Made by a program: the position numbers and the translations under genes. DNA of 64,000 bases from Bdellovibrionota bacterium (GTDB taxonomy: Bacteria; Bdellovibrionota; UBA2394): assembly GCA_044351695.1 (NCBI GenBank), contig JBILFF010000001.1:2400-66399 (forward strand). Reading direction: 5' to 3'. Within the stretch, counting starts at the first letter, position 1; each line of letters begins with the position of its first letter. The notes under the pieces are model-generated. The model was given only the letters and a program-made list of their open reading frames with translations. It ran no database searches and was not told the origin of the DNA. Positions 24,898 to 54,181 of the stretch are shown piece by piece.

Positions 24898-26067
24898 ATG
24901 GAGCTCAACGATATTCTAAAGATCGCGGTTAAAGCCAGCGCATCCGACATTCACCTTAAAGCCGGACTTCAGCCGATCTTTAGAATCGACGGGTCGCTGG
25001 TGCCGCTCAGCAATTCACCAACGATCACCACTGAGCAGGTGGTCAAAATCATGAATACCATGTTGAATGCTCAACAAAAATTGCGGTTCGAGGAATTTAA
25101 TGAGGTGGATTTAGCCTACGGCGTAGCAGGCGTTGGTCGATTTCGTGTTAACGCGTTTCAACAACGCGGCACGCCCGGACTCGTCTTTCGAGTGATTCCT
25201 TACGTCGTTAAGAGTATCGACCAGCTTGAGCTTCCCCCCATTCTTAAAACTATTGCTCTAGAGGAGCGTGGTCTTATTTTAGTGACCGGCGCGACTGGCA
25301 GCGGAAAGTCCACAACGCTCGCCGCGATGGTCGATTATATTAACGAGAATCATGCCTGTAATATTGTGACGATCGAGGAGCCGATCGAGTATTTGGTTAA
25401 AGATAAGAAGTCGATTGTGAATCAGCGCGAGGTAGGGGTGGATACGGTGGGCTTTAACCTGGCTCTTCGCGGAGCACTTCGACAAGATCCTGATGTCATT
25501 TTAGTGGGCGAGATGCGGGATGCAGAAACCATGGAGACGGCGATTCAAGCGGCCGAGACGGGGCACCTGGTCTTAAGCACTCTTCACACTTCTGATGCCG
25601 TTGAGACCATCAATCGAATTGTATCGGTGTTTCCGCCCTATCAGCACAAACAAATTCGGCTTCAATTGGCGAGCAACCTCAAGGCGGTGATCTCGCAGAG
25701 ACTGGTGAATAGACAAAGCGGCGAGGGCCGGGTTCCCGCCGTTGAGATCTTGATTAACAATTCGAGAACAAAAGAAATGATAGAGAACCCCGACCGCACA
25801 CGCGAGATGCATCAAGCCATCGCTGAAAGCCATGTCTCCTACAACATGCAAACTTTTGATCAGTCGCTGATGCAACTTCTTTCTAAAGAGCTCATCTCTT
25901 ATGAAGAGGCTCTTAAGCAATCTTCGAACCCTCACGATTTCGCACTTCGCGCCTCGGGTATTCACTCAGGTACAGATGCCAACTGGGATGCTTTTGAGCG
26001 ATCAGCCGAGGCCGAAAGCGCTCTCATCCCAAACGCTCAGGAGCCGGAGCGGGCCCAGAAAAAATAG
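24898..26067 (+). CDS. pilT: type IV pilus retraction ATPase, PilT/PilU family
   Basis: Walker A GATGSGKST and overall PilT similarity; about 40-aa C-terminal extension. Confidence 0.85.
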   Translation: MELNDILKIAVKASASDIHLKAGLQPIFRIDGSLVPLSNSPTITTEQVVKIMNTMLNAQQKLRFEEFNEVDLAYGVAGVGRFRVNAFQQRGTPGLVFRVIPYVVKSIDQLELPPILKTIALEERGLILVTGATGSGKSTTLAAMVDYINENHACNIVTIEEPIEYLVKDKKSIVNQREVGVDTVGFNLALRGALRQDPDVILVGEMRDAETMETAIQAAETGHLVLSTLHTSDAVETINRIVSVFPPYQHKQIRLQLASNLKAVISQRLVNRQSGEGRVPAVEILINNSRTKEMIENPDRTREMHQAIAESHVSYNMQTFDQSLMQLLSKELISYEEALKQSSNPHDFALRASGIHSGTDANWDAFERSAEAESALIPNAQEPERAQKK

Positions 26068-29303: not shown

Positions 29304-30344
29304 TTATACTAATTGATAGGAAGCGCCCTTACCTTTGCCTACGAGCTTCAAATGCTTGGCTTCCACCAATTTTCTCAAGTGAGTTTTGAGAGTATTTCGA
29401 TTAATTTCTGTCGCAGCATTTAGATCTTTTATCGTGGTTCGTCCGTGATCTTTGACGAACGCCATGATTCTCATCGAAACATCAGGAAGTTCTTCAATAA
29501 GCTGCTCCGTTTGAAGTTTTTTCTCTAGTTCGGTCATTTGTTTTTGAAGAATTTCGAGAAAAAAATTGAGCCAATCGTTAAGCTGTTTGTCTCCCTTGTC
29601 GAACGTGGCTTGCCCACGTCTGAGAGCCAAATAGTAGCGGTCTTTGTTTGCCTCAACGATTCTTTCAAGAGAGCTATACGGAACATAAGAGTAGCCCGCT
29701 CTAAGCAAAAGAATTGTCGTCAAAATTCTCGAAAGACGCCCATTTCCATCTTGAAACGGGTGGATGGCCAAGAACTGAATAACGAAATATCCAATAACGA
29801 GAATGGGATGAATTTCTCTCGATGAAAGTTGAGAATTAGTCCACTCAACGAGTCTCGTCATTTTGAACGGAGTATCGAAAGGCGCAGCCGATTCAAAAAT
29901 GACTCCGACACTCTTTCCTTTCTCATCGAAAGCTTCAACATTATTGGGGAATTTTTTGTACTCGCCGCGATGTCGCTCATCTTTCGTACTGAATCTCAAA
30001 AGAATTCCATGAAATTGCTTAATAATATTCTCGGTCAGAGGCAGTTCCTGATAATTGGCAAAAACTTTCTCCATCGCTTCAGCGTAGCCAGCAACTTCTT
30101 GTTCATCGCGACTTCTAAATGAATAACGTTTAAGGCCAGACAATAATTTTTCGATCTCTTGATCGGTAAGCTTGACCCCCTCGATTCGTGTAGAAGATCC
30201 AATGGATTCAATGGTCGCCACATGCCGGAGCGCATTCAGACGCTCAGGAGCGAGCCGTCTTGTCGCCGACCACCTGCCCTTAAATTCATCGAGCGCAGCA
30301 AGGATTCGAACCATTTCATGGGTTATTTTAATTTTGGGATCCAT
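29304..30344 (-). CDS. Fic/DOC family protein
   Basis: Canonical Fic motif HPFQDGNGRLSR; C-terminal wHTH-like region; AT-rich gene (~40% GC) compared with its surroundings. Confidence 0.85.
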   Translation of the reverse strand: MDPKIKITHEMVRILAALDEFKGRWSATRRLAPERLNALRHVATIESIGSSTRIEGVKLTDQEIEKLLSGLKRYSFRSRDEQEVAGYAEAMEKVFANYQELPLTENIIKQFHGILLRFSTKDERHRGEYKKFPNNVEAFDEKGKSVGVIFESAAPFDTPFKMTRLVEWTNSQLSSREIHPILVIGYFVIQFLAIHPFQDGNGRLSRILTTILLLRAGYSYVPYSSLERIVEANKDRYYLALRRGQATFDKGDKQLNDWLNFFLEILQKQMTELEKKLQTEQLIEELPDVSMRIMAFVKDHGRTTIKDLNAATEINRNTLKTHLRKLVEAKHLKLVGKGKGASYQLV

Positions 30345-30730
30345 ACACCCAAATATACACCCACATTCACCCAAATGTAACTAGATATGGGTATTTTTGG
30401 GTGAATTTATGGGGGTTTGATGAACCCGATTAAGAGAGTTTTAATCGGAGTATAAATATGGAACGATGCAGTTTGACGCAAAACCCGAAAGCGTTGGCTC
30501 AGCATGAACAAGCATCATTAATCGCAGTGGCGACCCAAGACATAAAGTTTCATCTGGATTAATACGATGCTTTCCGTCGCATTCTGTCTTCAAACCATGA
30601 GGCATAACCTTCTCTTGAGTGTGAGTTTTCTTCGAAACAACTTGGCCGATGCGTATCGATCTCAAGTGATGCCTGAGCGCAGGTCTCTTTTTATCTGAGT
30701 CCACCAGCTCAACATTCCGCACGGAATGTA

Positions 30731-30970
30731 GTGACGGCCCGTCGGATTCCCGCAACGATTCAGCATCAAATTCATCTGCGAGATCGAGGTCACTGCCAAC
30801 ACATCCTACCCAGTGGGCAGAAATGCCGATCCCGGCGAGGCCTTCATATTCATCATGAGCATGAGTATGGGGCGGGTGGGGTGCATGAGCCTGAGAATTT
30901 AAGAACTTACTGCCGAGCCCATCACCAGCTAACTCACTTTCAGCGCGAGATGCGGCTTGAGGCCTGCTAA
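30731..30970 (+). CDS. HNH endonuclease (start uncertain; frame open further upstream)
   Basis: HIHHEHEYGAGGVHEPENLRTYCRAHHQLTH fits the HNH motif (His-metal finger with Cys/His ligands). Confidence 0.6.
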   Translation: MTARRIPATIQHQIHLRDRGHCQHILPSGQKCRSRRGLHIHHEHEYGAGGVHEPENLRTYCRAHHQLTHFQREMRLEAC

Positions 30971-31178
30971 GGTTTGCAAGGATAAGTGAACTCTTTGTCA
31001 TGGGAACGATGGGCTTACGAGAATTGCCCATGGACGACGATGACGAAAAGGTCGCACGCCCTCAAGCACCGGCTCCGGCACCAGCACCCACTCCGGTGTA
31101 TCACGCGCCACAGCCGTATCCGTATCCGCATCCCAAGTACTACAAAAAGAAATCACTACTTAAAGAGCTGTTTGATTT

Positions 31179-32081
31179 TTAAATCTCAATCGTCAGAATC
31201 TTTTTGATCCAAAGAGCGCCCATGGTGATGAAGACCAGCATAAGGCCAAGCAGAATTAAACCCAAGTTGGTGGTGAAAAGCAGGCCGATGTAGTCAGGCT
31301 GCGTGAAATACAAAAGTCCCATCATCACAAAGGGTAGAGACGAGAGAATAAATCCCTGAGTCACGCCCGCACTCACCATGGTTTTAATTTTTTCGTTCAC
31401 GCGCTGACGCTCGCGAATCGTGTGTGCAATGGTCTCAAACGCCTCGCTCAAATCTCCCCCCTGCTGAGAGAGCGTTACCACAGAGTTCACAATCATAAAC
31501 AAATCGGCAGAGGGCACGCGCTTGGACATATTCATAAGTGCCTCGTTCAGCGGAACCCCAATACGATTTTCTTTGATGACCATCGCAAACTCTTGCTTTG
31601 CCGGATTGGGCAGCTCTTGCTCAAGCAATTGCACCACTTGCAAAAAACTAAGGCCTGACTTGATCGCATTAGACATCATATTGAGCGCATCGATGAGCTG
31701 CAGATCAAACGTCTCAAGTCGTTTTTGATACACAAATCGAATCACGATGCCCGGCAAACGATAAGCGCCAAAGGCCAGGAGTGATCCTGCAATCAAACTA
31801 CCAATCAAACCAAAGCGAAGACCGATGAGAAGGCCCACGACCCCAAAAAAGATCGTGGTTCCTAAAATGATTTGATACGCGCGATTCATCGACTGGCGCA
31901 TGTACATGCGATCGAAGTAATCGTAGATCTCGGCAGCGTAGTCATGAACCCCGACCTTAATATCGCGCTCCCATTCTCCGTATTTGTTCATGAAGAGTAA
32001 GAAGAGCGCGACAAAAATCGAGGCCGCACCGAGAACCAAAAATACGTAATACTGCGCTTCGTTAAAAAAATTCTCGATCAT
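31179..32081 (-). CDS. tadB: Tad/Flp pilus assembly inner-membrane platform protein TadB-like (T2SS-F domain)
   Basis: T2SSF-type polytopic membrane protein (…AMVIKENRIGVPLNEAL…); 4-nt overlap with the upstream ATPase gene. Confidence 0.75.
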   Translation of the reverse strand: MIENFFNEAQYYVFLVLGAASIFVALFLLFMNKYGEWERDIKVGVHDYAAEIYDYFDRMYMRQSMNRAYQIILGTTIFFGVVGLLIGLRFGLIGSLIAGSLLAFGAYRLPGIVIRFVYQKRLETFDLQLIDALNMMSNAIKSGLSFLQVVQLLEQELPNPAKQEFAMVIKENRIGVPLNEALMNMSKRVPSADLFMIVNSVVTLSQQGGDLSEAFETIAHTIRERQRVNEKIKTMVSAGVTQGFILSSLPFVMMGLLYFTQPDYIGLLFTTNLGLILLGLMLVFITMGALWIKKILTIEI

Positions 32082-34441
32082 GCCTTAGTCCCCCGAATCG
32101 GTGCGCGAACGGGGAGTGGTCCGGGTGCGCCCGAGGCGCCCGGTGCTGCAGGACGTGAAATCGGTCGGGGAGTGGGTCCTCCCACTTTTGCCGCCATCGC
32201 CGCAGCTCCTGCTGCATTGGCTGGCATAGCGGCTGGACTTGAAGGTACCGAAGCCACGGCTGACCCTGCTGAGGGAGCCGCAGCTCCGCCACCACCAAAC
32301 ATTCCTTTGGGCAAAGCAATTCCTTTGGCCTTGAGTGACTCTACAAATTTGGGAATCAAACCCGACGGCTGATAAGTTCCCAAAACCTTACCCTTCTCAT
32401 CCGTCCCCGACTGCTTAAACTCAAAAATCGGTTGGGTCACAATCGTATCGCCCTCGAGACCCATGACCTCAGTGATATGCGAAATGCGGCGACTTCCGTC
32501 GCTAAAACGTCTGAGCTGAACAATCAAATTTACCGCGCCCGAAATCTGCTCACGAATCGCGTTAATCGGCATATCAAAACCCGCCATCATGACGAGCGTC
32601 TCGATCCGCCGCAAACAATCGCGTGGATTATTAGAGTGAATGGTCGTGAGCGATCCATCGTGGCCCGTGTTCATGGCCTGAAGCATATCGAGCGCTTCAC
32701 CCGCACGACATTCTCCCACCACAATTCGATCGGGTCTCATACGCAAGGTGTTTCGCACGAGATCGCGAATCGTAATTGCGCCCTCACCTTGTAAATTGGG
32801 CGGCTTGGTTTCAAGAGTAATCACATGAGGCTGCGGGAGCTGAAGTTCGGCCGCATCCTCTACAGTAATAATCCGCTCGTCCTCGGGAATAAAGCCTGAA
32901 ATCAAATTCAAAAGCGTCGTCTTACCAGAACCCGTTCCTCCGCTCACAATGATATTCAAATGGGCCTGAACAGCGGCCCGCAAAAAGTCTGACATCTCTT
33001 CAGTCAAGGACCCGTACTTCACCAGATCGGAAATCTGAAGTTTCTCTTTAAAGAATTTTCGAATCGTGAGCGTTGCACCCGAAAGTGCGAGCGGCGGAAT
33101 AATCACGTTGATACGAGATCCATCTTTAAGACGTCCGTCGCAAAGCGGGGTTTTCTCATCGACCCGCCGACCTATCGGCATCAGTATCCGATCGATACAA
33201 CTCATGAGTTGTTTTTCAGAGGTAAATCGCAGATCCGAGAGAAAAATCTTTCCCTTTTGCTCTACAAAAATTCGGTTGTGACCATTCACCATGATTTCGG
33301 TGACGTCTTTACTTTCAAGGAGCGGCTCTAATGGCCCGAGGCCCAAGGCTTCATCGATAATATCTTTGGCGAGGCCTGCGCGCTCTTTTCGATCTTGAAC
33401 TTCTTTTGCCTCTTCTTCGAGTAGGCGGTGTACGGCTTGAATGGTTTGGTTTTTTAATTCTTCACGCTTTCGAGGGTCTTTTTCGAGAGCGAGCGCATCC
33501 ATTTGCTTAAGATCCACCAACTCCAAAAGTCGATCGTGCACACGCATTCGAATGCTAATATTGCGAGTGAGAATGGGATCGGGCGTGCTGCCCGCCTTGG
33601 CGACCAGCTTATCGCTTACGCCTCCGCCGTAAGTAAAAGGCAGAACCGTTTTGAGCGAATCAAAAATCTGCAGAGCTCCGGGCTTGGAATTGGCGGGCTT
33701 GCCGGGCCGAATGCTCTCTTGCACGACACGAAGAGCTTCATCCATCGCCTTGATATAAGGATGCTTTGAATTCAAAAGATGCAGCGGCTTTGCGGTGGCC
33801 ACCGACTGCTGAAACGACGGGCTGTCTGCCGGCAAAAGAATTCGCGCATCGAGCTGCATTTTTTGTCGGAGGAGCGTTGGGTTTACGACTCCGCCCGGGT
33901 TAAAACGATTTACGACCAGTCGCAGTTGATCGTTTGAAAAATGAAGCGATCGAAGCCTCTTAATGTGCTCGCCCGATTGATTCACCGACAGAATGTCGGA
34001 ATCGGTGACCACGAAAATGAGATCGGAGTTCTCAAAAACTCTAAAACTAAGCGGGTTGATGTCTGCGCCCGCATCCACAATCACAAAGTCAAAGCTGCGC
34101 GCCAGAAGCTTAAGCGCCTTGTCGGCTACCACATCATCGAGATTCTGAAAGTCAGTTACAAAGTTGGCTGCATTCAAAATCGACAGGCCTGTCGAGTGTT
34201 TGCCCACCCAGTTCAGCGCAAGCTTGGGGTCCATCTTGTTCGACTCCTTCATAAAGTCGATCAAGGTTTTTTGATCTCTTGCGTTTAAGAAGGTCGAAAA
34301 ATCACCGAGATTTTTTACATCGGCCTCGACCAAACAAATCTTGCTCGCCCCACCTTGCATAAGACCCATGGCCAAATGAATGGCGTAGGTCGACTTACCC
34401 ACCCCATCTTTACCACCAGTGATCGAAATCAAAGCCCCCAT
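32078..34441 (-). CDS. fused TadZ/CpaE-like (ParA/MinD ATPase) and TadA/CpaF secretion ATPase, with low-complexity Gly/Ala/Pro C-terminal tail
   Basis: N-terminal deviant Walker A GGKDGVGKST (MinD/ParA-like); C-terminal VirB11/CpaF region (GGTGSGKTTLLN…TVEDAAELQL…TGHDGSLTTIHSN); 787 aa. Confidence 0.75.
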   Translation of the reverse strand: MGALISITGGKDGVGKSTYAIHLAMGLMQGGASKICLVEADVKNLGDFSTFLNARDQKTLIDFMKESNKMDPKLALNWVGKHSTGLSILNAANFVTDFQNLDDVVADKALKLLARSFDFVIVDAGADINPLSFRVFENSDLIFVVTDSDILSVNQSGEHIKRLRSLHFSNDQLRLVVNRFNPGGVVNPTLLRQKMQLDARILLPADSPSFQQSVATAKPLHLLNSKHPYIKAMDEALRVVQESIRPGKPANSKPGALQIFDSLKTVLPFTYGGGVSDKLVAKAGSTPDPILTRNISIRMRVHDRLLELVDLKQMDALALEKDPRKREELKNQTIQAVHRLLEEEAKEVQDRKERAGLAKDIIDEALGLGPLEPLLESKDVTEIMVNGHNRIFVEQKGKIFLSDLRFTSEKQLMSCIDRILMPIGRRVDEKTPLCDGRLKDGSRINVIIPPLALSGATLTIRKFFKEKLQISDLVKYGSLTEEMSDFLRAAVQAHLNIIVSGGTGSGKTTLLNLISGFIPEDERIITVEDAAELQLPQPHVITLETKPPNLQGEGAITIRDLVRNTLRMRPDRIVVGECRAGEALDMLQAMNTGHDGSLTTIHSNNPRDCLRRIETLVMMAGFDMPINAIREQISGAVNLIVQLRRFSDGSRRISHITEVMGLEGDTIVTQPIFEFKQSGTDEKGKVLGTYQPSGLIPKFVESLKAKGIALPKGMFGGGGAAAPSAGSAVASVPSSPAAMPANAAGAAAMAAKVGGPTPRPISRPAAPGASGAPGPLPVRAPIRGTKA

Positions 34442-36102
34442 CAGTTCGCTCCTCCCTCATCATCGCCCGCCACAGGCTCAACTGCGTCGAGATTGATTTT
34501 TTGTCGAATGTCTTTAGACGCGTCTCGTGCTGAAACCAGAATCTCGGGCGTCACAAAGACAATAAAAATACTTCGGTCTTGGTTCATCGCGCGACTCTTA
34601 AAGACGTTAAAAATATTTCCGAGAGCGGGGGTCACGGGTGCTGTCAGCCCTGGGGCTTGAAACCCAAAAGGTTGCGGGGCATCTTTGATATCAACCATCG
34701 AGGTCTTCACCACACCCCCCAGAGCCACCGTTTCACCTGATCGAACGTAGTTTGAAGTGTCGACACTTGATTCATTAACAATCACGCCCTGAACTTCAGC
34801 TGTAGACGATCCCAGAGCACGCACCGATACCGAGACTTTCATATCAATAAAGTCTCTCTCATCGGCAGTGGGAGTCACATTCAGAGTGACCCCGATAGGT
34901 ACCGGCTCGCCCGAAGTCACCAGCTGACCCTGTTGATTGACGGACTGTAAGAACAACTGGCCTCCCGAATTGATGGCCGCCACTTCTCCGCTCTTCACCG
35001 AGACGCTGGGGTTATGAAACACTCGCGCCACTCCCAAAGCCTTGGCCGTAGAGAGTCGGGGCAAGAAGTCACTCAGAACCGCGGCAAAACTAAAGGGCTC
35101 TTGACCAGCCGGAGTAGGAAATGGACCCACTTGAGTTTGCGCCAACGCCACCGGCGCCCAGCTAAAACTAAAGTTTCGCATAAAAGACTTATTGAGCTCT
35201 ACAAAGTGAGCAGAGATTTGCACCAGTCTGGCGGGTCGAGAGTTTTTACGGTCCGGATTGACCGCGATCACGTTTACGATTTTGTCGGCGGGCACATAAA
35301 TGCCAGCAATCAAACCAGCTCGTTCTTTTTCTTGCTCAGTGGCGACCTCACCCTTCAAGACCACTCGGTCTCTTACGTTTTCGACTTCAACACCAGAGAT
35401 GTTGATTTCGTTTTTAATCCGCCGAGTGAGAATACGCTGCGTGTCTCGCGAGAGTCCTACCAAGTTAACGACCGATGTATTGCCCGCAGTCACCTCGGCA
35501 ATTCGATCGAGATCGGCCTGCAAAAACACTTCGCCCTCGATAATGATGCGGCTACCCACACGCTTAAAGCTTAGGCCTTCAATATCGCGCAAAAGAAACT
35601 TAAGATCTTTGACGTAGGCATCGAGATCACTCGACGTCACCACGAGCTCAATTTTATCTCGCTGAATGCCGCGCGAATCAAAAAGCAGGATGGCTGTTTG
35701 ACCAGGACTTAAGGGAGAGACGATCATTCGACGTCGCGGCCGATCTAAAATCGGAGCCGCTATCGAGGGATTACCAATCGCAATCTCACCAATATCATAG
35801 TCGAATTCGATCGTGCGGGGCACGTTGACCACCAAAAGAAGTTCGCGATTTCGAATTTTATCGATGGGTGTTGCATCGGTACTCAGACTGATGCCCGACG
35901 CTGGCGCACTTGAGCTGGGAGTACTTGGGCTTGAAGCGCTAGAGTCCTCAATCAAGGCGGGAGGAGGCGTTGCGCTCGAGTCGCTAGGCTGACTTGAATT
36001 ACTCGATTCTTGAGCATCGAGCTTGAGTGGTAAAGCTAAGAAGACAAGCACAATCCCAAAATTGAGGTGCTGGCGATAACTACTTTTAGAACGGAGTAGC
36101 AT
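34441..36102 (-). CDS. cpaC: Flp pilus secretin CpaC/RcpA-like
   Basis: Signal peptide, Ser/Pro-rich linker, C-terminal secretin-like region; position between cpaB and the ATPase as in tad/cpa loci. Start taken at an internal Met to limit overlap with cpaB. Confidence 0.65.
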   Translation of the reverse strand: MLLRSKSSYRQHLNFGIVLVFLALPLKLDAQESSNSSQPSDSSATPPPALIEDSSASSPSTPSSSAPASGISLSTDATPIDKIRNRELLLVVNVPRTIEFDYDIGEIAIGNPSIAAPILDRPRRRMIVSPLSPGQTAILLFDSRGIQRDKIELVVTSSDLDAYVKDLKFLLRDIEGLSFKRVGSRIIIEGEVFLQADLDRIAEVTAGNTSVVNLVGLSRDTQRILTRRIKNEINISGVEVENVRDRVVLKGEVATEQEKERAGLIAGIYVPADKIVNVIAVNPDRKNSRPARLVQISAHFVELNKSFMRNFSFSWAPVALAQTQVGPFPTPAGQEPFSFAAVLSDFLPRLSTAKALGVARVFHNPSVSVKSGEVAAINSGGQLFLQSVNQQGQLVTSGEPVPIGVTLNVTPTADERDFIDMKVSVSVRALGSSTAEVQGVIVNESSVDTSNYVRSGETVALGGVVKTSMVDIKDAPQPFGFQAPGLTAPVTPALGNIFNVFKSRAMNQDRSIFIVFVTPEILVSARDASKDIRQKINLDAVEPVAGDDEGGAN

Positions 36103-36961
36103 AAACCTGCCCTCCGCGAATCTCACGATAGGCCGGAGGTGGCCCAACGACGATTGGTAGTTTGATTCCAAAAGCTCTAAACGGATCGAGGTAGTCGAGG
36201 TTATCGACCGTGCTTGTATCTCCAAAGGGTCGCAGCGAGAGAACGATACGACCCGCTGCCTGAGCCAAGATGAGCTTTTGAACATCTTGAGGGCTTAAGG
36301 CCACCGTCACGTTTTTATTCGCAAGATCTCCGCCCTCAAAGGCAGAGGTCATTCGATTCACTTGCGCAGAAGGCAGGCGCTGATCTTGACCCACCGCAAT
36401 GATTTGAATGCGCTGAAAGATGGTACGAACTTCGGCCTTCAGCTCTTGTGTTTGCGCGTTTAGAGCCGCTGCCCCCGCCATACCGCCCCGCTCGATTTCT
36501 TTGGTGCTTACAAAAAGCGTGAGCAGAATATCTACAAAATGACCGGGGCGAATAAGCCCTGCCACACCCACCACATCCTGATCGTCACGAATACCGATGG
36601 TGACCGCTCGCATGCCTTCTGGAATTCTTTTATCGAGCGAGCTCTCATCAAACGGAATGAGTTTAGTCGTCATGATGGGCTCATTGGCCTTGATCGTCGA
36701 CTGAGCGACCTGGCCAATCACTTGTGACTCGTTTACCGCCGTCTGGGGCGGAACATAGCGAGTAGGCCACACCTCTTTAACCACCATGTCGGCGGTGATT
36801 CTTGAGCCAGGGACGATATCTTGAAGTGCCTTAATAATCAGACTCTTCTCATCCATGTCTCCCACACGATTGTCGACCGCCTTACTCACAGACAGCAGAT
36901 AGAACACGGCGGCTCCCACTGCTGCTGCCAATGACCAGACTATAGCGCGTTTGTTTTCCAT
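36086..36961 (-). CDS. cpaB: Flp pilus assembly protein CpaB/RcpC
   Basis: N-terminal TM, SAF-like domain; typical CpaB length (291 aa). Confidence 0.75.
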   Translation of the reverse strand: MENKRAIVWSLAAAVGAAVFYLLSVSKAVDNRVGDMDEKSLIIKALQDIVPGSRITADMVVKEVWPTRYVPPQTAVNESQVIGQVAQSTIKANEPIMTTKLIPFDESSLDKRIPEGMRAVTIGIRDDQDVVGVAGLIRPGHFVDILLTLFVSTKEIERGGMAGAAALNAQTQELKAEVRTIFQRIQIIAVGQDQRLPSAQVNRMTSAFEGGDLANKNVTVALSPQDVQKLILAQAAGRIVLSLRPFGDTSTVDNLDYLDPFRAFGIKLPIVVGPPPAYREIRGGQVYATPF

Positions 36962-36962
36962 C

Positions 36963-39900
36963 TCAGTTCGTAGCCTTTCGCTCCTGCGACTTCAGAATTT
37001 CTGCAAATCGCATTTTTGTTTCGACATAACGACGGGACTTTTCTTGGTAATGCGCCTTGAGCGCCTCCAAAGTTTCTCGACCCGTCGTAAACTTAACTCG
37101 TGTGTAAATCTCTTCGGCTCGCTTCAAGCGCTCGTACTGAGAATCAGCAGGACTCATCTCGGCCTTACGATAAGCCTTGATCATTTGCGCAGCGGCTCGA
37201 GCGGCCTGAGCAAAGCGTCGCTCTTCGCTGAATCCACTGGCAATCACGGGACGATCCGATAGTTTTTCTTCGGCAACGCGTACTAAGTGAAAAACTTTTT
37301 GGGCTTCTTTGTAGCGCTCTTGATAGTTTTGGTGGGCCTTTGCAATCAGAGCTCGGTCTGCCTCGAGGCGTGCACCAGGAGCCGGTCGCTTAAGTTTTCG
37401 ATCGAGAATCTTTTGAGCCTCGTCAATTTTTTTCTGAAGTGCATTTAAATAAACCTCTGTTTGCAGCTCGCCCTCGGCCGCTCGGGCCTCGATGCTTTGT
37501 ATCGCCTCTTGAGAGGCCTCCAGAGTTCGCCAAAGGGCCGCCCCGTCGCGGTGACCAAATCGTCGCAAGACCTCGCGCTGAGAGATTTGACTGAGGGCAT
37601 TTGAGAGCGCCGTTAAACTGCCCGCATGACTTGAGCCTTCAAAGTTTTCTTTGAGAGCTCGAGGAAAATTTTGCTCTCCTTGTCGACGAATATTGTCGGC
37701 AAGAGCGGCTGTAAATTGCTGTTCGGCACGAACGATTTTTGGATTCAGGCTCATGCGACGACCGGCATTGCCCATGTCAACCGCGCCTGGTGCGCCTGAG
37801 TTCGAAGCCATCTGGCGCGCATAAGATTCTTCGCGATCGACGATGCGCTGCACGCTTTGATACGCCAAGAGCATGTCTTGAACAATTTGCTGATCAGGGG
37901 TTCGGCCCTGTGCCGTTTCTCGAGTGATATGATCCTCAGCCTGAGCAATCACACTCATGTATTCATCAAATCGAGCACGGTCGCCCTCCGTCAGCTGGGC
38001 ACGAATCGAGTTGGCCTTAGAATTGATCGTCGTCATTTTTTGACGAACATCACTTGCGGCCACCACTTCAACCGCGCTAGCCGGCTTACCGCTAGGGCCG
38101 CGATTTCGAGCAAACGAAGCGGCCTCGCTACTGGCTTGATTTTCCAACTCGCCGATTTCTTTTTGGGCCGCTGCATAATCAGCCCGCCCTTGGGCTTCGA
38201 TCTGATCAGCTACATCTTGAGCTTGATTGTATGCCTCGACCGCGCCCTTCACACCACCAGCCGTACCCACGACCATGTTGCCCGCATTGATCGTGGCGTT
38301 CACCGTTTTGAAGGCATCATTCGCCTTTTCGAAAGACGTTCGATTGTCGGGCGCTGCTTCTTTTGAGTTTGCATCTTTGTTGCCCTCACCAGAGGCTACG
38401 GCTTGGCCTGCGGCGTCTTTTTCTTTGCTCGAATTTTTAGCGTATTCGCCCACGGCGTCGGCAAACATTCCCGCAGCGCCTACTAATGCCAGCGCTCCCG
38501 CTCCCATGGTGGCGTAACCAAATTTTTCAGCCAACTCTTGATTACCAGTGGCCTGAGCGATGCTGCCGCCCACTGCTGCCACCCCGCCGATCGCGGCTCC
38601 CGTTTGAGCCAAGGCCTCAAAAGGTTTATCACTCAAAGAAATTTTGCCTGACTGCACACCGTGAGCAAATGAGCCCACCCCTCCCACTGCGGCAAGTGCC
38701 CCACCAGCAAGGCCGAGGCCCTTGGCGACTCCACTATCTGGATCTGCTATTCCAACAATCCCGCCGGCACCACTAATCAAGCCCCCCGCAGCGGTGACGG
38801 CCTCCCACTTAGCCCCGTCGACCCACTTGCCCTCTTTGATCCAGGTGTCAGTGACGCCTGTATAATTTTCTCCAAAACTAAAAGCAGCTCCACCAAAACC
38901 AGAAACAGTGCTCACGATACCCGCTGCTCGGCCAAAGTTAGGGTCGACGAATCCTCCAATCGTTCCTACACCGCCAGAAACTCCACTGATTCCTTTAAAA
39001 ATGTCTGAACCCAAACCCGCTTGGCCTAGAGTTTGGTTGTTCACTGTGAAACCATCAAATTTTTGAAAACTTGAAATTCCGCCTGCAATTCCTCCAGCGG
39101 CCCCAGTGATAGCTGCGGCCATACCCAAAGCCTCACTTTGATTTCCGCCGAGTGCTAAGCCCGCGTTCACTAAATTGAGTCCATTAGAAACTGTGTTTAA
39201 AACCTGGCCGGTATTGTAGATGACAAAGCCTTCTTTGAGTCCCTGCCCCCCTCCTAGAAACTGTACAATGTTATTGAGAGTGCTATTGGCGGTCGCACCC
39301 GCTGCCGCCCCCGTGTTTGCAGCACTTGCAGCACTTGCTGCGTTTATCGCTTGAATGTTTGCAATCGATGCCATCGCAAGAGAGACGATGGCTGCAACAC
39401 CTCCTCCTGTAATTCCATCCATCGCGCTCACAGTGCCTCGAAAGTTGTGCGCTTCTTGAGCAAGTCGTGGGTCGTTCTCGACGATTTGCTTGAGCTGCTC
39501 TTCAATAAACTGCGTGTTGTCAATGAGGCCCACACCCGCCACATCGGCGGCCTGCATGAGCGGCTGAAGTTTTAATAGGTGAACTCCGCCACTATAAATT
39601 CCGGTGCCGCCACCAAAACCAGCGGCCTGATTCAAGTTTAGATCTGAGGGGTCTTCATTTAATTTCAAAGATCGATTAGAGGCAATCGCCACCGTTTGAC
39701 TCATGACCCACTCACGAGCTGCTATGTCATCACCACCAATATCCCACTTGTATTTAACAACCCCCGTCGGAAAACTAAATTGCTGCCAAAAACGATTTTG
39801 TACTTTGGGCAGGGCGCCATCAAACTGCATCTCGCCCTCAACTGCTTTTTTAAAACTATCGATCTTGTCGAGCTCGATGCGAGTGCCCGGGGTTTCTTTG

Positions 39901-40157
39901 CCCAACTGAAACACAAGAAAACCTTTGTTGTTCTGCAGATCGTCTTCGCCAAATCTCTCGGTTCCGAAATCCGAAAAATTACCCAGCTCTAAAAAGGCTT
40001 GCGACCGAGCTAACATGGTTTGCTTTTGACTAATCTCGAAAAGATTATTCATCACAAAGGCCGCACCGAAAAAGAAAACCACCAAAGAAAGCACCGCAAA
40101 AAGCTCAATAACGCTTTGAGCTCGATGCGATTTATACTGGCGACTGGTGCTCTTCAT
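36963..40157 (-). CDS. giant (1064 aa) Gly/Ala-rich protein with prepilin/TadE-like N-terminus (putative giant pseudopilin or pilus tip protein)
   Basis: N-terminal …HRAQSVIELFAVLSLVVFFFG matches the Flp/TadE-type prepilin pattern (A/G|Q-x-x-x-E plus hydrophobic helix); long GGxG-rich repeats; C-terminal coiled-coil-like region. Confidence 0.55.
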   Translation of the reverse strand: MKSTSRQYKSHRAQSVIELFAVLSLVVFFFGAAFVMNNLFEISQKQTMLARSQAFLELGNFSDFGTERFGEDDLQNNKGFLVFQLGKETPGTRIELDKIDSFKKAVEGEMQFDGALPKVQNRFWQQFSFPTGVVKYKWDIGGDDIAAREWVMSQTVAIASNRSLKLNEDPSDLNLNQAAGFGGGTGIYSGGVHLLKLQPLMQAADVAGVGLIDNTQFIEEQLKQIVENDPRLAQEAHNFRGTVSAMDGITGGGVAAIVSLAMASIANIQAINAASAASAANTGAAAGATANSTLNNIVQFLGGGQGLKEGFVIYNTGQVLNTVSNGLNLVNAGLALGGNQSEALGMAAAITGAAGGIAGGISSFQKFDGFTVNNQTLGQAGLGSDIFKGISGVSGGVGTIGGFVDPNFGRAAGIVSTVSGFGGAAFSFGENYTGVTDTWIKEGKWVDGAKWEAVTAAGGLISGAGGIVGIADPDSGVAKGLGLAGGALAAVGGVGSFAHGVQSGKISLSDKPFEALAQTGAAIGGVAAVGGSIAQATGNQELAEKFGYATMGAGALALVGAAGMFADAVGEYAKNSSKEKDAAGQAVASGEGNKDANSKEAAPDNRTSFEKANDAFKTVNATINAGNMVVGTAGGVKGAVEAYNQAQDVADQIEAQGRADYAAAQKEIGELENQASSEAASFARNRGPSGKPASAVEVVAASDVRQKMTTINSKANSIRAQLTEGDRARFDEYMSVIAQAEDHITRETAQGRTPDQQIVQDMLLAYQSVQRIVDREESYARQMASNSGAPGAVDMGNAGRRMSLNPKIVRAEQQFTAALADNIRRQGEQNFPRALKENFEGSSHAGSLTALSNALSQISQREVLRRFGHRDGAALWRTLEASQEAIQSIEARAAEGELQTEVYLNALQKKIDEAQKILDRKLKRPAPGARLEADRALIAKAHQNYQERYKEAQKVFHLVRVAEEKLSDRPVIASGFSEERRFAQAARAAAQMIKAYRKAEMSPADSQYERLKRAEEIYTRVKFTTGRETLEALKAHYQEKSRRYVETKMRFAEILKSQERKATN

Positions 40158-41449
40158 TAGTGCAAGAACCTCTTAATCACATCTTCGGCGGTTTCTTGTT
40201 GTTGATTGGGTCCTTTGGGTCCAACGTACTGCATGTACTTCCACAGATCGCCGTAGTCCTCTTTGATCGGTGTGGTTCGAGGATCCAAAAGTAGTTTTCG
40301 AATTCCGGCGAGTCGCACACCAAAAGGCATATATTCACTCTTGGCCAGACTGCCCCCAAAAGGCTCGGCCGCAGAGACCGCAGCAAGTCGAGTACGAGTC
40401 GGAAAGAGAGAGCCCGTTGCACCCAGAGAATTTTCGAGATTCATAAACGTGCCTGACTGCGGAAACCAGTCGGCCGCAACAACCGCAAAGGGTTTTGGCT
40501 TATGCGGATTCTCTACAAAATGAATGGGAATCGCGTTGCCATCGATTTTTGAGAGCCGGTTGATCTTACCAATATTTCCCACACCCTCTCGTCCTAGGGC
40601 GTAAGCCGAAAGCGCAAGCGCCAGACCCGGAAAGCCACCCGACGTGCCCGCTCCGTTCACCGGACAGTAATACAGTGGCGGACACTTTGAGGGATCCGGG
40701 CAGGCATTGACACACATCGGCCCGAAATAAATAAGAGTGTGGGGCACTCCCGCAACCACTTGAGCGAGGTAGGCCCCCTTGTTGCTTGAAAAAGTGAGAA
40801 TCGCATTCTTTCGTTTTTGGCCCGATGCCGGGTTGGAGGCGTTGACGATCTCGTCCAGTTGGTTGGTGGTATCACCAGAACTCAAAAGCCCACCGCCATC
40901 TATTGTAAGCTCTGGCACATTGGCGCGCATCGTCGCCTCTGCCGCTTTTTGCATGGCTTTTGGTAGCTGCTGAAGAATGCGACGAATCTCTTCATGCTGT
41001 TGCATGATGCGTTCTTTGGCATCATCGTAGGTGTCTAAAGCGCGGCCAGCCACGACGACATTCATCGCGTTACATGCCACTGAGCAAGAGCCAGGGTCTG
41101 GCCAGATGCCCGGAAAGGCCACACGATTGGGGCGCTTGTTAATATCTTCAATTAACTTGAAGTACTCTTCTCTGATTTTAAAATTTTTTGCCTGAATTGA
41201 ATTTTCGCCCGAACTATAATTACCCAAATAATTGGCAGCGACAGATGCGGCAGAGTAAGCCGCCATATCTGTGGCTGTTTGCAAACGGATTTTTTGCCAA
41301 ACCATAAAGCCGCTGTTGATCACGAGCATAAAAAATCCCATGAACAATCCAAAAATCATCGTAAAGAAAACAAGTGCAATCGCTCGCCTTGACGATGGAT
41401 GAAGGAGCCTCGATTTAGTTGCTGGGCGAATTCGCATTCTGATCCTCAT
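40157..41449 (-). CDS. TadG-like (Tad_N domain) pilus assembly protein
   Basis: N-terminal TM followed by …QKIRLQTATDMAAYSAA, typical of the TadG N-terminal domain; start uncertain. Confidence 0.55.
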   Translation of the reverse strand: MRIRMRIRPATKSRLLHPSSRRAIALVFFTMIFGLFMGFFMLVINSGFMVWQKIRLQTATDMAAYSAASVAANYLGNYSSGENSIQAKNFKIREEYFKLIEDINKRPNRVAFPGIWPDPGSCSVACNAMNVVVAGRALDTYDDAKERIMQQHEEIRRILQQLPKAMQKAAEATMRANVPELTIDGGGLLSSGDTTNQLDEIVNASNPASGQKRKNAILTFSSNKGAYLAQVVAGVPHTLIYFGPMCVNACPDPSKCPPLYYCPVNGAGTSGGFPGLALALSAYALGREGVGNIGKINRLSKIDGNAIPIHFVENPHKPKPFAVVAADWFPQSGTFMNLENSLGATGSLFPTRTRLAAVSAAEPFGGSLAKSEYMPFGVRLAGIRKLLLDPRTTPIKEDYGDLWKYMQYVGPKGPNQQQETAEDVIKRFLH

Positions 41450-42239
41450 CTTGATTTTCTTGTGAAGGCGCCTCAACGACTCCAGACTCAAGGCCTGGGT
41501 TGAGCAGTACAGGCACGTAAACCTTATGCCATCGACGAGCGCGCTCGCGATCGTCTACCTGCTTTTCAACGGTGATCCCGCCCTCCGTGGTCGGCTGCTT
41601 GCCATCGAAGACACTGTAGGGGTTAAACAAAAGGCGGTTCTTAAATTGTAGTCGCATGATTGCGTAACGCAGGGGTTCGCGATCTTTCTCTTTAAATCCT
41701 CCTGAGAGGGCCTCGAGCTGAGCTCGATTTGCAAAATTAGACAAAGCATTATCTTCGTATTTTAAAAACGTAATCGACTTATTGATGTTGGTGCTTTCGT
41801 ACTTTCTTTCGCCCTCCATACAGGCGGCTCGTTCTTGATCTTGAGTGGGCGCTGCAGAAGTTAAATCTCCCTGAGGAGGCCGAACCCAGGGCAGTGCGCA
41901 GGTAAAAATATCTTCGGCCGTTCGAATGACGGTTAGAGTTTTTTCGGAACTCAAAAGACCAAGGTCGCCACTCGTGCCGCGCTCTTTGAACGCGTCTTTA
42001 CCGGTGTGATCGCCATACACCTGGTAACTTCGAGCAGCCATGAAAGCTGCGTAAGTGGCAACGGTTCGAGTGTGCATATAAACCCCAAGGTTAATGGTGG
42101 CAAAAGCGAGAAAGATGATGCTTGTGAAAACAAAGGCGGTCTCCAGAGCGGTTTGAGCCCGCTCTGGATTTCGCAACTTGAAACACAACCGACTCCGAGT
42201 CCCCGAATGTAAAAGTAGGGAGTTCACGAGGCCGAGCAT
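41415..42239 (-). CDS. TadE-like pseudopilin
   Basis: N-terminal …RAQTALETAFVFTSIIFLAFATINLG (TadE-type prepilin helix). Confidence 0.6.
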   Translation of the reverse strand: MLGLVNSLLLHSGTRSRLCFKLRNPERAQTALETAFVFTSIIFLAFATINLGVYMHTRTVATYAAFMAARSYQVYGDHTGKDAFKERGTSGDLGLLSSEKTLTVIRTAEDIFTCALPWVRPPQGDLTSAAPTQDQERAACMEGERKYESTNINKSITFLKYEDNALSNFANRAQLEALSGGFKEKDREPLRYAIMRLQFKNRLLFNPYSVFDGKQPTTEGGITVEKQVDDRERARRWHKVYVPVLLNPGLESGVVEAPSQENQDEDQNANSPSN

Positions 42240-42249
42240 CCTCTCTCGC

Positions 42250-42459
42250 TTACCGAGGTACAGTGGCGTTACCCTGAATAAGATTCTTTTGAATATCTTC
42301 AGAGAGTTTACCCTCGATCGCTTTTTTGACTTTATCGCCCACCACGTTCCAAGACGCCATGATCACTAGCGTAATGGCGCCAACCACCAGAGCGTACTCC
42401 AGAGCGGTTTGAGCTTTTCTGTTTTTTCGGGTTTTGAGTTTTTGAATCATTCGTTTCAT
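42250..42459 (-). CDS. flp: Flp family type IVb/c pilin
   Basis: …RKAQTALEYALVVGAITLVIMA carries the Flp motif (x-TA-LEY plus hydrophobic core); about 69 aa from an internal Met. Confidence 0.7.
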   Translation of the reverse strand: MKRMIQKLKTRKNRKAQTALEYALVVGAITLVIMASWNVVGDKVKKAIEGKLSEDIQKNLIQGNATVPR

Positions 42460-42517
42460 CGGTATTGCTTCTCCTTTTACAAAGTGGTTAATGGGGACAA
42501 ACTTTTGAGCAGCGTCA

Positions 42518-42769
42518 CTACGGGTAGGGGCGTCCAATCACGCCCATTTTTTCTTCGTCGCCGTAGGCGCTCTTGACGACATTACGAACGAGATTGTCTT
42601 TTTTGTTATCACCTGAGTCTTTGAGGTAGCTGTTGAGCACGATCGCGACCGGAATCACAAAAACCGCAATCATCAAAAAGTATTCGAGCGTCGTCTGAGC
42701 TCTGCGACGACTTACTTTAGAGCTCGAGCGTAAAAGACTTTGGGTGTTAAAAATCGCCTTCATCCGCAC
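42518..42769 (-). CDS. flp: Flp family pilin (second copy)
   Basis: …RRAQTTLEYFLMIAVFVIPVAIV Flp motif. Confidence 0.7.
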   Translation of the reverse strand: MRMKAIFNTQSLLRSSSKVSRRRAQTTLEYFLMIAVFVIPVAIVLNSYLKDSGDNKKDNLVRNVVKSAYGDEEKMGVIGRPYP

Positions 42770-45900: not shown

Positions 45901-46070
45901 CGAGCGGCTTCAGCTTGCTTTTCATCAAAGTCTCTTTTTTCTCGATCTTGGCGCATTTGAGTATCTACATCCGCTGCGCCCAGGGGGGTTTCATCTTTAC
46001 CGGTCATTCGTGCGTTGGTTGGCACCTCTTCATTACAAGCCACCAAAAAGAGGGGCAAAACAAACATCAT
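42918..46070 (-). CDS. giant (about 1050 aa) low-complexity lipoprotein of unknown function
   Basis: Internal start MMFVLPLFLVAC (lipobox); KE/D-rich coiled-coil-like segments and Ala/Ser/Gly-rich tracts; no recognisable catalytic domain. Confidence 0.5.
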   Translation of the reverse strand: MMFVLPLFLVACNEEVPTNARMTGKDETPLGAADVDTQMRQDREKRDFDEKQAEAARKAQEDKDKRDREFREKELGVNKELKLEELKVRSKEADNSADLRGGEQKGNVEARKYEADARVTQAQIQAEAQRDAASGQMWGSAFQAGAGLAGSVGGAAMNASGARDAAEAQADATKYSVDANKEARLAEAQARTDQVRFQVLGDKAAKSFAADLRRHSGAMAEVDRRLERNSTYVGHLTDAASSGRVILGAGTPNSDKARIQDFARRNGLEYETQPLDGGGQQIIFKDKDKVGKAVNGGTNFWGNPDLDKPGELARVEQLNRALTDKKAELKERSKQLAAYAGEEEGVDSDPQSLLGDLPPDPFSDEPASKKQRGDTIKIETNTGSYSIPSFFAPSTQEIVLATAEVGKDGRLKAKEPLQKALNLDKLPNGSARVMVMGGQKVENGELVNRPLDDAYVKQLTGMGLGTIREVDGVASINVPGELKLDQGVGEAVGKVILENQDLRAISNKSGSMTPAEMQAFGQEVDSRVAQGMTRGAAVLVVAKEWQGPLSCGPLAVACSVSLSEKMGKDGYQFEVIDQQIIGKDGTSVLHQSVKVTNKDGNSFLFNPDKIPDNANVADWVSANVNSVTKDMQPDANDAAINVGGGDTQTGRVQYDNLRSSEPSSDSNPSAPKNYVELPKENDSALGQLSAGGGEKSGDGKNSDWKGVPFAAPSDGSDDSSLSNLLSLAPGAGAGSAAAAVSAAGVGSEATAAPGAALSASQTDAAVDGLASAASVASAAAYENDPSFVGPPSPRAGAAASAVASGGGASAAAAASASVEVNNFGFPIFTTPPLLAAPSAAPAAKTTPSPDSSTNVPDLLRRAYDMDRAEREAKYACVGGYENDECAGFQAYAAKLDEIRQEGESLKSLRAEVEEIRKKNNRTPEEEQKIKSYQTSLAALNTKIDELNELREKVSIVGSNQTSIQNTQDLLADSQMSVGLLLDALGENYNASVANQELSILGERISVLRNQDIITNGSDLYAQNQSYGPGVAGDGPSSDLRGGSSNAAAFR

Positions 46071-52842: not shown

Positions 52843-53204
52843 TCGAGTCGATCCCCCACACGAAGATCGCCTAAATCACAGAGCGAAAACTCAACCAGAT
52901 AGCTACAGCCCCCCAGCAAATATCGCCCCGGAGCAATGAGCCGTCCGGGCTTAACCGCTCGATAGATTGCTCGCACTACTTTTTCAGAATTACAAAAAAC
53001 AATGTCGATCGAAAACTTCATGCCAAAAGTATGGACCACGGGCAAAAAGCCTCCGAGCGCCAAATCAAAAACCGCCGCCGATTGACGGGGGGCTTGCGAG
53101 TATTTAAGTAAGCCGCGGGCCCTCTCGGCAGCACTCCTAAAAAATTCGAGCCGCTCAGCAAGCAGTCGTTGGTCTCGATGGGCTTGTGCAAGTCTCGTGA
53201 TCAT
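52836..53204 (-). CDS. DUF192 (COG1430) family protein
   Basis: …MKFSIDIVFCNSEKVVRAIYRAVKPGRLIAPGRYLLGGCSYLVEF fits the DUF192 pattern (…ID.vF.d…V……P……YVLE); overlaps both neighbours. Confidence 0.55.
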   Translation of the reverse strand: MITRLAQAHRDQRLLAERLEFFRSAAERARGLLKYSQAPRQSAAVFDLALGGFLPVVHTFGMKFSIDIVFCNSEKVVRAIYRAVKPGRLIAPGRYLLGGCSYLVEFSLCDLGDLRVGDRLEW

Positions 53205-54181
53205 TACAAGAAGTTCTTAAATAAAGGGTTGTTGTAGTAGAGGTCGCAAACCACCGGCCCCAGAATCACAATAAAAACGGCAGGCAAAATACAAATGACC
53301 AGCGGTAATAAAATCTTTTGCGATGCCTTGGCCCCTTCGCGCTCCGCCTTAGCAAATCGATCGCGCCTCAAAAGATCACTCTGCGCCCGAAGCACGCCCC
53401 CAATGCTCGCTCCCATCTCGTCGGCCTGAATCAGAATCGAAACAAACGAAGAAATCTGCGACAGCTCTGTGCGATCGGCCATGTTTCTCAGCGAGTCGGC
53501 ACGCGAGGTGCCCAGCTGAATTTCTTTAAGAACCGTGTTGAGCTCATCGATGAGTGGGCCGGGCTTTGAAAACTGAATCACGCGCGAAAGTGCCGCCATA
53601 AAATCCATGCCGGCCTCAACAGAGAGCGTAAGCAAGTCCATGACATTGGGCAGCTCCCGAATGATCGCCTTTTGGCGCCGCTTTTTTGTTTCAATCACAA
53701 TATAGTCGGGAATATACAGCCCCACCAAAGCCACTAAAAGCGCGTGCGGCAGACCCAAGCTGCTGCCCGCCTGAAGCGCAAAGAGAGTCGCAAAAACAAC
53801 CGCAAGACCCGCAGCACAAATTTTGAGTCCCACAAATTCATCAGGATCAAACTGATCCGAAACTCCAGCCACAATAAACAGCTTGCGCTTTTTTTGCCTA
53901 TACATGGGCATCTTCATTTGCTGAATCCGAGGCACCATTGCCGAGTAAAATGGCGATAGAAATTTAAGTGACCAGTGCCGAAACACACGATTTGCGCTCT
54001 CAACCCCCAAGCGCTGCTGCGCGGCCAAAAGCTCTTGATCCGGAAAGATGAGCTTTACTGCATTAAAAACAAAAAAGCCGATGCACAGCATCCCTAAGAG
54101 CTGAAAACTCGTGGATAAAATATAATCAAAGGTCAAAGCCATGGATTGCTCCGTAAAGATTGATTGCAAGGCCCAAGCCAC
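53204..54181 (-). CDS. tadC: Tad/Flp pilus assembly inner-membrane platform protein TadC-like (T2SS-F domain)
   Basis: T2SSF-type polytopic membrane protein (…LPNVMDLLTLSVEAGMDFMAAL…). Confidence 0.75.
   Translation of the reverse strand: MAWALQSIFTEQSMALTFDYILSTSFQLLGMLCIGFFVFNAVKLIFPDQELLAAQQRLGVESANRVFRHWSLKFLSPFYSAMVPRIQQMKMPMYRQKKRKLFIVAGVSDQFDPDEFVGLKICAAGLAVVFATLFALQAGSSLGLPHALLVALVGLYIPDYIVIETKKRRQKAIIRELPNVMDLLTLSVEAGMDFMAALSRVIQFSKPGPLIDELNTVLKEIQLGTSRADSLRNMADRTELSQISSFVSILIQADEMGASIGGVLRAQSDLLRRDRFAKAEREGAKASQKILLPLVICILPAVFIVILGPVVCDLYYNNPLFKNFL

Follow-up and report, generated by a model that had tools for sequence, protein, structure and literature searches.

In the Tad (Flp/type IVc) pilus system, the site of pilus assembly is set by TadZ/CpaE and the driving power comes from TadA/CpaF, and the atypical receiver domain (ARD) found at the N-terminus of canonical TadZ/CpaE proteins is thought to serve polar targeting. 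Here, we analyzed a 64,000-nucleotide stretch of DNA from a Bdellovibrionota bacterium (positions 2,400 to 66,399 of contig JBILFF010000001.1, assembly GCA_044351695.1), hereafter referred to as the window. It carries a tadZA-like gene on its minus strand (32078..34441), in which a single open reading frame (ORF) of 787 amino acids (aa) joins a TadZ/CpaE-related ATPase domain to a CpaF/TadA motor.

A TadZ-TadA hybrid, named TadZA, has already been published for tad locus 1 of Bdellovibrio bacteriovorus (bioRxiv 10.64898/2026.07.08.737194, July 2026), and an earlier report of the fusion is cited in that preprint as its reference 13. The B. bacteriovorus tadZA gene was not deletable and is essential, its product is made as a full-length protein, and its TadZ domain plus linker is both required and enough for binding the polar hub protein RomR in a heterologous assay. 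This TadZA protein lacks the ARD, RomR has a degenerate receiver domain, and TadZA moves dynamically between the poles with a bias toward the invasive pole; tadC is encoded apart from the other genes, and the loci have FHA neighbors (bioRxiv 10.64898/2026.07.08.737194).

In Caulobacter crescentus, where the two proteins are separate, a cryo-electron tomography fit placed six CpaE dimers in a ring that surrounds the CpaF hexamer (12 CpaE per hexamer), an arrangement in which proximity of both proteins is the normal state. Residues 1–79 of Caulobacter CpaF (NTD0) are disordered and dispensable. A further likeness is found in KilF, from the Tad-like Kil system with which Myxococcus xanthus preys on other cells: KilF is also a CpaF-type motor with an extra fused N-terminal domain, and the tad-like genes of M. 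xanthus are distributed among loci with many FHA-domain proteins. The domain added to KilF is an FHA domain instead of a ParA-like ATPase, and the Kil machinery forms where prey is contacted and not at a pole. The fusion described below has been reported before and occurs widely in Bdellovibrionota, and the window protein is a new, divergent member.

Architecture of the fused protein

We consider it likely that the window protein acts as the TadZA-type motor subunit in the Tad (Flp/type IVc) pilus machine of a bacterium that is Bacteriovoracaceae-like within the Bdellovibrionota. The ORF runs from an ATG, with a Shine-Dalgarno sequence (GGGAGGAG) 7 nt upstream, to a stop codon at 32078–32080, and contains no internal stop or frameshift. 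The ATG shares bases with the stop codon of the secretin gene (TGATG), while the stop shares bases with the start of the tadB-like gene (ATGA). Read from the sequence, the gene boundaries look genuine and rcpA-tadZA-tadB is a typical translationally coupled operon. A first-pass annotation of this DNA had proposed one in-frame polypeptide, without stating the strand, made up of a ParA-like domain whose Walker A motif is deviant (GGKDGVGKST), a complete CpaF/VirB11-like ATPase in the same frame and a low-complexity Ala/Gly/Pro tail of about 70 residues. Each of these features was recovered, as detailed below.

A complete CpaF/TadA motor occupies aa 288–715 (32297..33580, minus strand) and matches the solved C. 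crescentus CpaF (8rkd/9e24). Residues 301–704 align to CpaF residues 89–485, covering NTD1-NTD2-CTD (E=2.9e-131, 441 bits), and aa 366–645 match Pfam T2SSE (8e-64; 216 bits, the cut-off being 24.9). The NCBIfam TadA family (TIGR03819) matches aa 330–657 at 4.8e-96 with 321.9 bits, below the cut-off of 373, this model being that of a conjugal-transfer-associated subgroup. All the motor motifs are intact, namely Walker A (GGTGSGKTT, 501–509), the Asp box (ERIITVED, 522), Walker B with its catalytic Glu (RMRPDRIVVGECR, 567–579) and the His box (GHDGSLTTIH, 593–602), and all four are invariant in 62 homologues. P606 and R607 are likewise invariant in the 62 fusions; they correspond to CpaF P386/R387, which have been linked to retraction (2026 preprint). 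The motor has all ATPase motifs in common with the bifunctional Tad motor of Caulobacter (8rkd, 8rjf, 9e24), but where the latter starts with the disordered 79-residue NTD0, the window protein has a linker preceded by a folded ATPase of 245 aa, and it carries in addition a long C-terminal tail. Gene context also places the motor in the TadA/CpaF family, since it stands in a tad locus with a secretin, RcpC, platform proteins and candidate Flp pilins.

The N-terminal domain (aa 1–245; 33707..34441, minus strand) has a ParA/MinD-type ATPase fold, related to TadZ/CpaE and devoid of an ARD, as judged by AlphaFold2, Foldseek and profile searches. Its AlphaFold2 model reached a predicted local distance difference test (pLDDT) score of 92 and a predicted template modeling (TM) score of 0.91; in the full-chain model, two confident domains were separated by a disordered linker and followed by a disordered tail. 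The ParA-like Pfam families AAA_31, CbiA and MipZ match aa 4–190. The Walker A motif lies at residues 9–18 (34388..34417, minus strand), with both the signature Lys (K11) and the P-loop Lys (K16) present. Compared with the TadZ consensus K/RGGxGxS/T (quoted in bioRxiv 10.64898/2026.07.08.737194), the window sequence K-D-G-V-G-K-S fits at the signature Lys and at the Ser and has Asp instead of Gly at the second position. K11 and K16 are kept in at least 90% of the 62 fusions and D41 and D123 are invariant; overall, little or no variation was seen at G9, K11, G13, G15, K16, D41 and D123 in 62 sequences spanning about 27% identity. Conservation of K11, K16, D41 and D123 suggests that the domain probably binds nucleotide and can dimerize, the latter being inferred.

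The flexible linker (aa 246–287; 33581..33706, minus strand) contains a short conserved helix or motif, LQIFDSLKTVLPFTYGG, at about aa 257–273. In the full-chain AlphaFold model, pLDDT was below 50 for aa 246–277, with a short helix at 259–266.

The disordered Ala/Pro/Gly-rich tail (aa 716–787; 32081..32296, minus strand) comprises the 72 aa that follow ...ALPKGMF, among which are 22 Ala, 13 Pro and 12 Gly (47 residues, 65%) and 7 Ser, with a net charge of +6; pLDDT was below 50 at aa 716–778. It ends in a basic peptide, LPVRAPIRGTKA (32081..32116, minus strand), which is a degenerate copy of a motif, ΦP[IV][RK]NPxGxKK, found in the closest relatives of the window protein. This terminal motif was absent from all other ORFs of the window, and our literature search found no description of the tail.

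Subfamilies and distribution of the fusion

The protein homologue search gave 2963 matches at E≤1e-10, of which the best 120 were listed. Apart from a few fragments, nearly all of the 120 were proteins of 716–801 aa with ParA-type and T2SSE domains, and the same architecture was present in well over 100 homologue clusters. The named fusion clusters were labeled Bdellovibrionales, Pseudobdellovibrionaceae, Bacteriovoracaceae or Bdellovibrionota, together with the generic labels CpaF, MinD and TadA. The first-pass annotation had suggested looking for homologous fusions in relatives, and the named clusters are indeed nearly all from Bdellovibrionota.

Two subfamilies could be distinguished among the listed matches. 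Subfamily A, to which the window protein belongs, comprises about 40 clusters that are 61–82% identical, and Bacteriovoracaceae-labeled metagenome-assembled genomes (MAGs) in the genome collection encode proteins 62–66% identical to the window protein. Its traits are a [KR]DG variant of Walker A, seen in 38 of 38 sequences, the conserved linker motif LDVLK..LPFTYG and a tail of 23–86 aa. Subfamily B, the ~720-aa Bdellovibrionales type, comprises about 75 clusters with 43–45% identity over 89–91% coverage; its Walker A (KGGVGKS) fits the TadZ consensus, its linker motif is LxxLAKLKKPTG, and the tail is usually absent. Between the subfamilies, the N-terminal domains share about 27% identity, as opposed to about 55% for the motor half. 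B. bacteriovorus TadZA is presumed to be among the ~720-aa fusions. It resembles the window protein in having an ARD-less TadZ domain, a flexible linker and TadA in one chain and in the same order, and it likewise comes from a predatory Bdellovibrionota lineage; compared with that type, the window protein has KDGVGKS in place of KGGVGKS, a different linker motif and a basic-ended 72-aa tail that is mostly missing there.

Tails homologous to that of the window protein were found in all 38 subfamily-A sequences. These tails contain 21% P, 14% S, 13% G, 11% A and 9% K, and their sequence is not conserved except at the end, where KK occurs within the last four residues in 35 of the 38 and the full motif in 20, with a mean net charge of +3 over the last 12 aa. 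Two proteins from Bdellovibrionales/Bdellovibrionaceae MAGs close to the ~720-aa subfamily (L007, 754 aa; L008, 778 aa) also have extensions with basic, Gly-Lys-rich ends (…PRKPLGFKKTGTDGSNT and …KRVPGGDKK, respectively), which indicates that the tail is not strictly confined to the Bacteriovoracaceae-type subfamily.

A Candidatus Omnitrophota MAG likewise encodes a full-length fusion (P0307, 721 aa; contig of 241 kb), as do MAGs labeled 'Deltaproteobacteria' (P0310, 727 aa). Another complete TadZ-TadA fusion outside Bdellovibrionota-labeled genomes is P0308 (712 aa). Full-length matches in Planctomycetota (L025, L028, L030 and L032) were rejected, because in each case a TadZ-like gene of about 400 aa and an adjacent cpaF had been joined by tblastn. 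In a rough, midpoint-rooted neighbor-joining tree built without support values, one main clade held the fused Bdellovibrionota proteins, with P0307 and P0215 outside it, and the N-terminal domain of the Omnitrophota protein grouped with unfused TadZ-like proteins. The grouping of the Omnitrophota domain may point to a separate fusion or to a transfer, and the position of P0307 and P0215 may reflect more than one fusion event; we do not take a single origin of all fusions as established. The KDG-Walker-A, Bacteriovoracaceae-type subfamily, its basic-ended tail and the full-length Omnitrophota fusions appear to be undescribed in the literature consulted.

Origin of the N-terminal domain and alternative explanations

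A profile of the fused N-terminal domains was searched against 1.84 billion representative proteins. The best unfused relatives were overwhelmingly proteins of 380–440 aa that matched at about residues 130–390. Six of them were scanned: all had a MinD-like ATPase, and at least three also had a response-regulator-like N-terminus, which is the CpaE/TadZ architecture. The ATPase domain begins 125–250 residues into these unfused relatives and at residue 2 in the window protein, which has no N-terminal ARD. In 8 of 12 comparison loci, the best-matching ORF lay directly upstream of cpaF, and the adjacent gene pairs of the Planctomycetota loci provide further evidence that the domain is TadZ-related. 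On these comparisons, the N-terminal domain is homologous to the TadZ/CpaE ATPase domain and is not a random ParA; the possibility of a generic ParA unrelated to TadZ, against which the first-pass annotation had cautioned, was thus not borne out. Given the absent ARD, we file it as a homologue of the TadZ ATPase domain and not as a complete TadZ.

Several observations weigh against the reading of the window protein as a TadZA-type motor subunit, and part of them would fit the alternative in which the N-terminal domain is no orthologue of TadZ/CpaE but a MinD/FlhG-type ATPase of generic kind that was acquired independently of TadZ, perhaps as a module for membrane binding or regulation. Its best NCBIfam match is minD_bact (aa 4–191, 7.9e-17), above CpaE_hom_Actino; its Walker A retains the P-loop Lys and the full GK[ST], as MinD does; it has no ARD; and the canonical Eubacterium rectale TadZ structure (3fkq) scored only 33 bits in the profile search of the PDB, below MinD (53–67) and FlhG (76), and was not among the top 50 Foldseek fold matches. 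Set against this, all MinD models scored far under their cut-offs (61.5 against 212.9 bits for minD_bact) and the neighbors are tad genes, which speaks against membership in the MinD family. The best unfused relatives are the receiver-plus-ParA proteins described above and not MinD-sized proteins of 260 aa, and those encoded in tad loci also carry KGGxGK[ST] variants of Walker A; in single-sequence comparisons, the domain scored up to 69 bits to tad-locus relatives and 34 to MinD. The top structure in both searches was 3ea0, which has a TadZ-type KGGDGGS motif, with 113 bits in the profile search and a TM score of 0.88–0.90 (root-mean-square deviation of 2.2 Å) in Foldseek, where FlhG/MinD reached 0.75–0.81. 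Moreover, the domain sits at the tadZ position of an operon, and no other ParA-like ORF, hence no separate tadZ, was found within the 64-kb window. An independently recruited MinD/FlhG-type module is consequently improbable. The remaining points against the TadZA reading concern the transfer from described systems. The membership of HD100 TadZA in the ~720-aa subfamily is presumed, and RomR binding may not carry over to the window protein, whose N-terminal domain shares no more than about 27% identity with its Bdellovibrionales-type counterpart. The ring geometry cannot match that of Caulobacter, since the fusion forces 6 and not 12 copies per hexamer. When the linker helix was scanned by hydrophobic moment as a possible vestige of an amphipathic, membrane-targeting helix, the scan did not discriminate, the MinD reference peptide scoring below the linker, and any function of the tail is speculative.

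Two other explanations bear on the polypeptide as a whole. Firstly, adjacent tadZ and tadA genes might have been joined by a sequencing or assembly frameshift or by a lost stop codon, an error that the first-pass annotation had asked about. The two genes are usually neighbors in that order, such that a single error could join them, and in the Planctomycetota loci, truly separate tadZ-like and cpaF genes were merged by tblastn. However, two contigs from independent Joint Genome Institute (JGI) metagenome assemblies (L048 and L049) carry DNA for an identical 787-aa protein and its flanks, with 0 mismatches over 3.6 kb. Together with the recurrence of the architecture in homologue clusters, these contigs exclude an artefact; in addition, the linker itself is conserved, AlphaFold modeled both halves confidently from a single chain, and full-length TadZA protein was detected in B. 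bacteriovorus (bioRxiv 10.64898/2026.07.08.737194). The artefact is thereby effectively refuted, and we attribute a negligible probability to it. According to the other explanation, the protein works simply as TadA, the fused TadZ domain being a degenerating remnant and both it and the tail dispensable passengers. Such a remnant would account for the much faster evolution of the N-terminal domain relative to the motor, for the loss of the ARD and for a low-complexity, highly variable tail, and in Caulobacter, CpaF can do without the corresponding N-terminal segment. The near-invariance of the nucleotide-binding and catalytic residues and the confidently predicted fold of the N-terminal domain argue to the contrary, as do the conservation of the terminal peptide of the tail while its spacer is not conserved, and the specific RomR interaction mediated by TadZ plus linker in B. 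bacteriovorus. We thus regard a degenerating remnant as quite improbable.

With regard to known relatives, canonical TadZ/CpaE proteins (Aggregatibacter actinomycetemcomitans TadZ, C. crescentus CpaE and E. rectale TadZ, 3fkq) share with the window protein the ParA/MinD fold and a deviant Walker A motif as well as the position beside tadA, and, by analogy with them, the window domain would be expected to form dimers with ATP and, like CpaE when it rings CpaF in situ, to associate with the motor. It differs from them in the lack of the ARD and in its covalent joining to TadA, with a stoichiometry fixed at 1:1. The closest solved structure, 3ea0, is a 'ParA family ATPase' of Chlorobium tepidum from structural genomics, for which our literature search found no functional description. 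It is likewise an ATPase of stand-alone size without an ARD, but it stands unfused to TadA, the P-loop Lys is missing from its Walker A motif, and it is 20% identical to the window domain. Relatives of about 250–270 aa without an ARD (P0129, 252 aa; P0131, 262 aa; P0254; P0258; P0263) scored as high as some fusions; they may represent either gene fragments or true TadZ proteins that, like 3ea0, are unfused and have no ARD.

The tad locus and a proposed mechanism

The tad genes flanking the fusion lie on the same strand. Downstream and translationally coupled is a tadB-like platform gene (31179..32081; Pfam T2SSF, 3.8e-15), and the coupled upstream gene encodes an rcpA/cpaC secretin (34441..36285; Pfam Secretin, T2SS-T3SS_pil_N and BON), followed further upstream by rcpC/cpaB (36086..36961; Pfam RcpC, 3.9e-22, and SAF). 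The longest rcpC and secretin ORFs overlap by 200 nt (36086–36285), and the true secretin start is probably a downstream start codon. A tadE-like pseudopilin gene (41415..42239; Pfam TadE, 1.8e-06) and two candidate Flp pilin genes (42250–42537 and 42518–42769), recognized from the leader/hydrophobic segments QTALEYALVVGAI and QTTLEYFLMIAVF in their sequences, complete this group. Two operon genes for proteins of 1064 and 444 aa (within 36963–41491) stand between the tadE-like gene and rcpC, and a gene for a 1089-aa protein with long Ala/Ser/Gly-rich and coiled-coil-like stretches lies just upstream of the Flp genes (within 42918–46187, minus strand). These three proteins had no Pfam or NCBIfam match and may be lineage-specific components of the Tad system or of a hit-locus-like system.

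A tadC-like gene for the second platform protein (53204..54181, minus strand; Pfam T2SSF, 1.5e-20; phmmer with TadB, 4.2e-08) was found 21 kb from the main tad locus, followed by three consecutive FHA-domain genes on the same strand (51250–52842, 530 aa; 50274–51206, 310 aa; 47701–50277, 858 aa). As in B. bacteriovorus, the fusion is thus encoded with rcpA and tadB, tadC lies elsewhere, and FHA genes are nearby. The tadC-like gene with its three FHA genes recalls both the FHA-rich Kil system of Myxococcus and the FHA neighbors of the B. bacteriovorus tad loci, and the Ser/Thr/Pro-rich tails of subfamily A could in principle be phospho-dependent FHA ligands. The usual place of tadC, directly downstream of tadB, is taken by a 196-aa ORF without matches and a Fic/DOC protein of 356 aa with a C-terminal helix-turn-helix (29304–31031, minus strand). 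A type IVa retraction ATPase of the PilT/PilU family (24898–26067, plus strand; TIGR01420, 463.6 bits, above the cut-off) is encoded 6 kb from the tad locus, so that the organism has genes for both type IVa pilus and Tad machinery in this region.

Taken together with what is known in B. bacteriovorus and Caulobacter, from which we infer dimerization, hub binding, polar targeting and a function of the tail, these data are consistent with the following mechanism. The C-terminal two thirds of the protein would be a normal hexameric CpaF/TadA ATPase that powers pilus dynamics via the TadB/TadC platform. The dispensable, disordered N-terminus of CpaF would have been swapped for a TadZ/CpaE ATPase domain on a tether of about 40 residues, such that each motor subunit would carry its own ParA/MinD-type positioning module at a fixed 1:1 ratio, probably ATP-dependent and dimerizing, with a stoichiometry forced to 6:6 rather than the 12:6 modeled in Caulobacter. 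By analogy with B. bacteriovorus TadZA, the N-terminal domain and linker would most likely bind a polar hub protein; there, RomR may supply in trans the receiver-like domain missing from TadZ and thereby tie motor recruitment and activity to the prey-invasion pole. The first-pass annotation had suggested that the fusion would hard-wire the polar-localization module to the motor. This agrees with a role that was put forward, and in part tested, for the TadZA of B. bacteriovorus, and it holds here in part: with the ARD half missing, only the ATPase half of TadZ is, as far as the domain comparison indicates, hard-wired to the motor.

The tail peptide could then provide an extra tethered contact. 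In a 2026 preprint, the motor's C-terminal face was proposed to engage the platform in retraction, and a C-terminal mCherry fusion was reported to block retraction. The position of the tail at this proposed retraction face makes it a reasonable, if speculative, candidate regulator. It might adjust how the motor changes over between extension and retraction, or fasten it to the membrane or a partner, in a subfamily lacking the TadZ receiver. We put forward only tentatively, as an unlikely combination, that the tail peptide is a tethered motif with a role in regulation or interaction, located on the motor's C-terminal face, and that, separately, the fusion arose more than once.

Covalent fusion fixes both the ratio and the proximity of the positioning and motor modules and therefore constitutes a natural experiment on their coupling, notably in predators that fire the pilus at the prey-contact pole. 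Work on this question is already under way in B. bacteriovorus, and the window leaves the overall picture unchanged while adding comparative material, namely a divergent subfamily that keeps every nucleotide-binding residue and has a distinct linker motif and a tail on the proposed retraction face. If fusion did occur repeatedly in host-dependent or predatory lineages, i.e., in Bdellovibrionota and Candidatus Omnitrophota, this would point to selection for hard-wiring where the pilus fires at a defined contact site.

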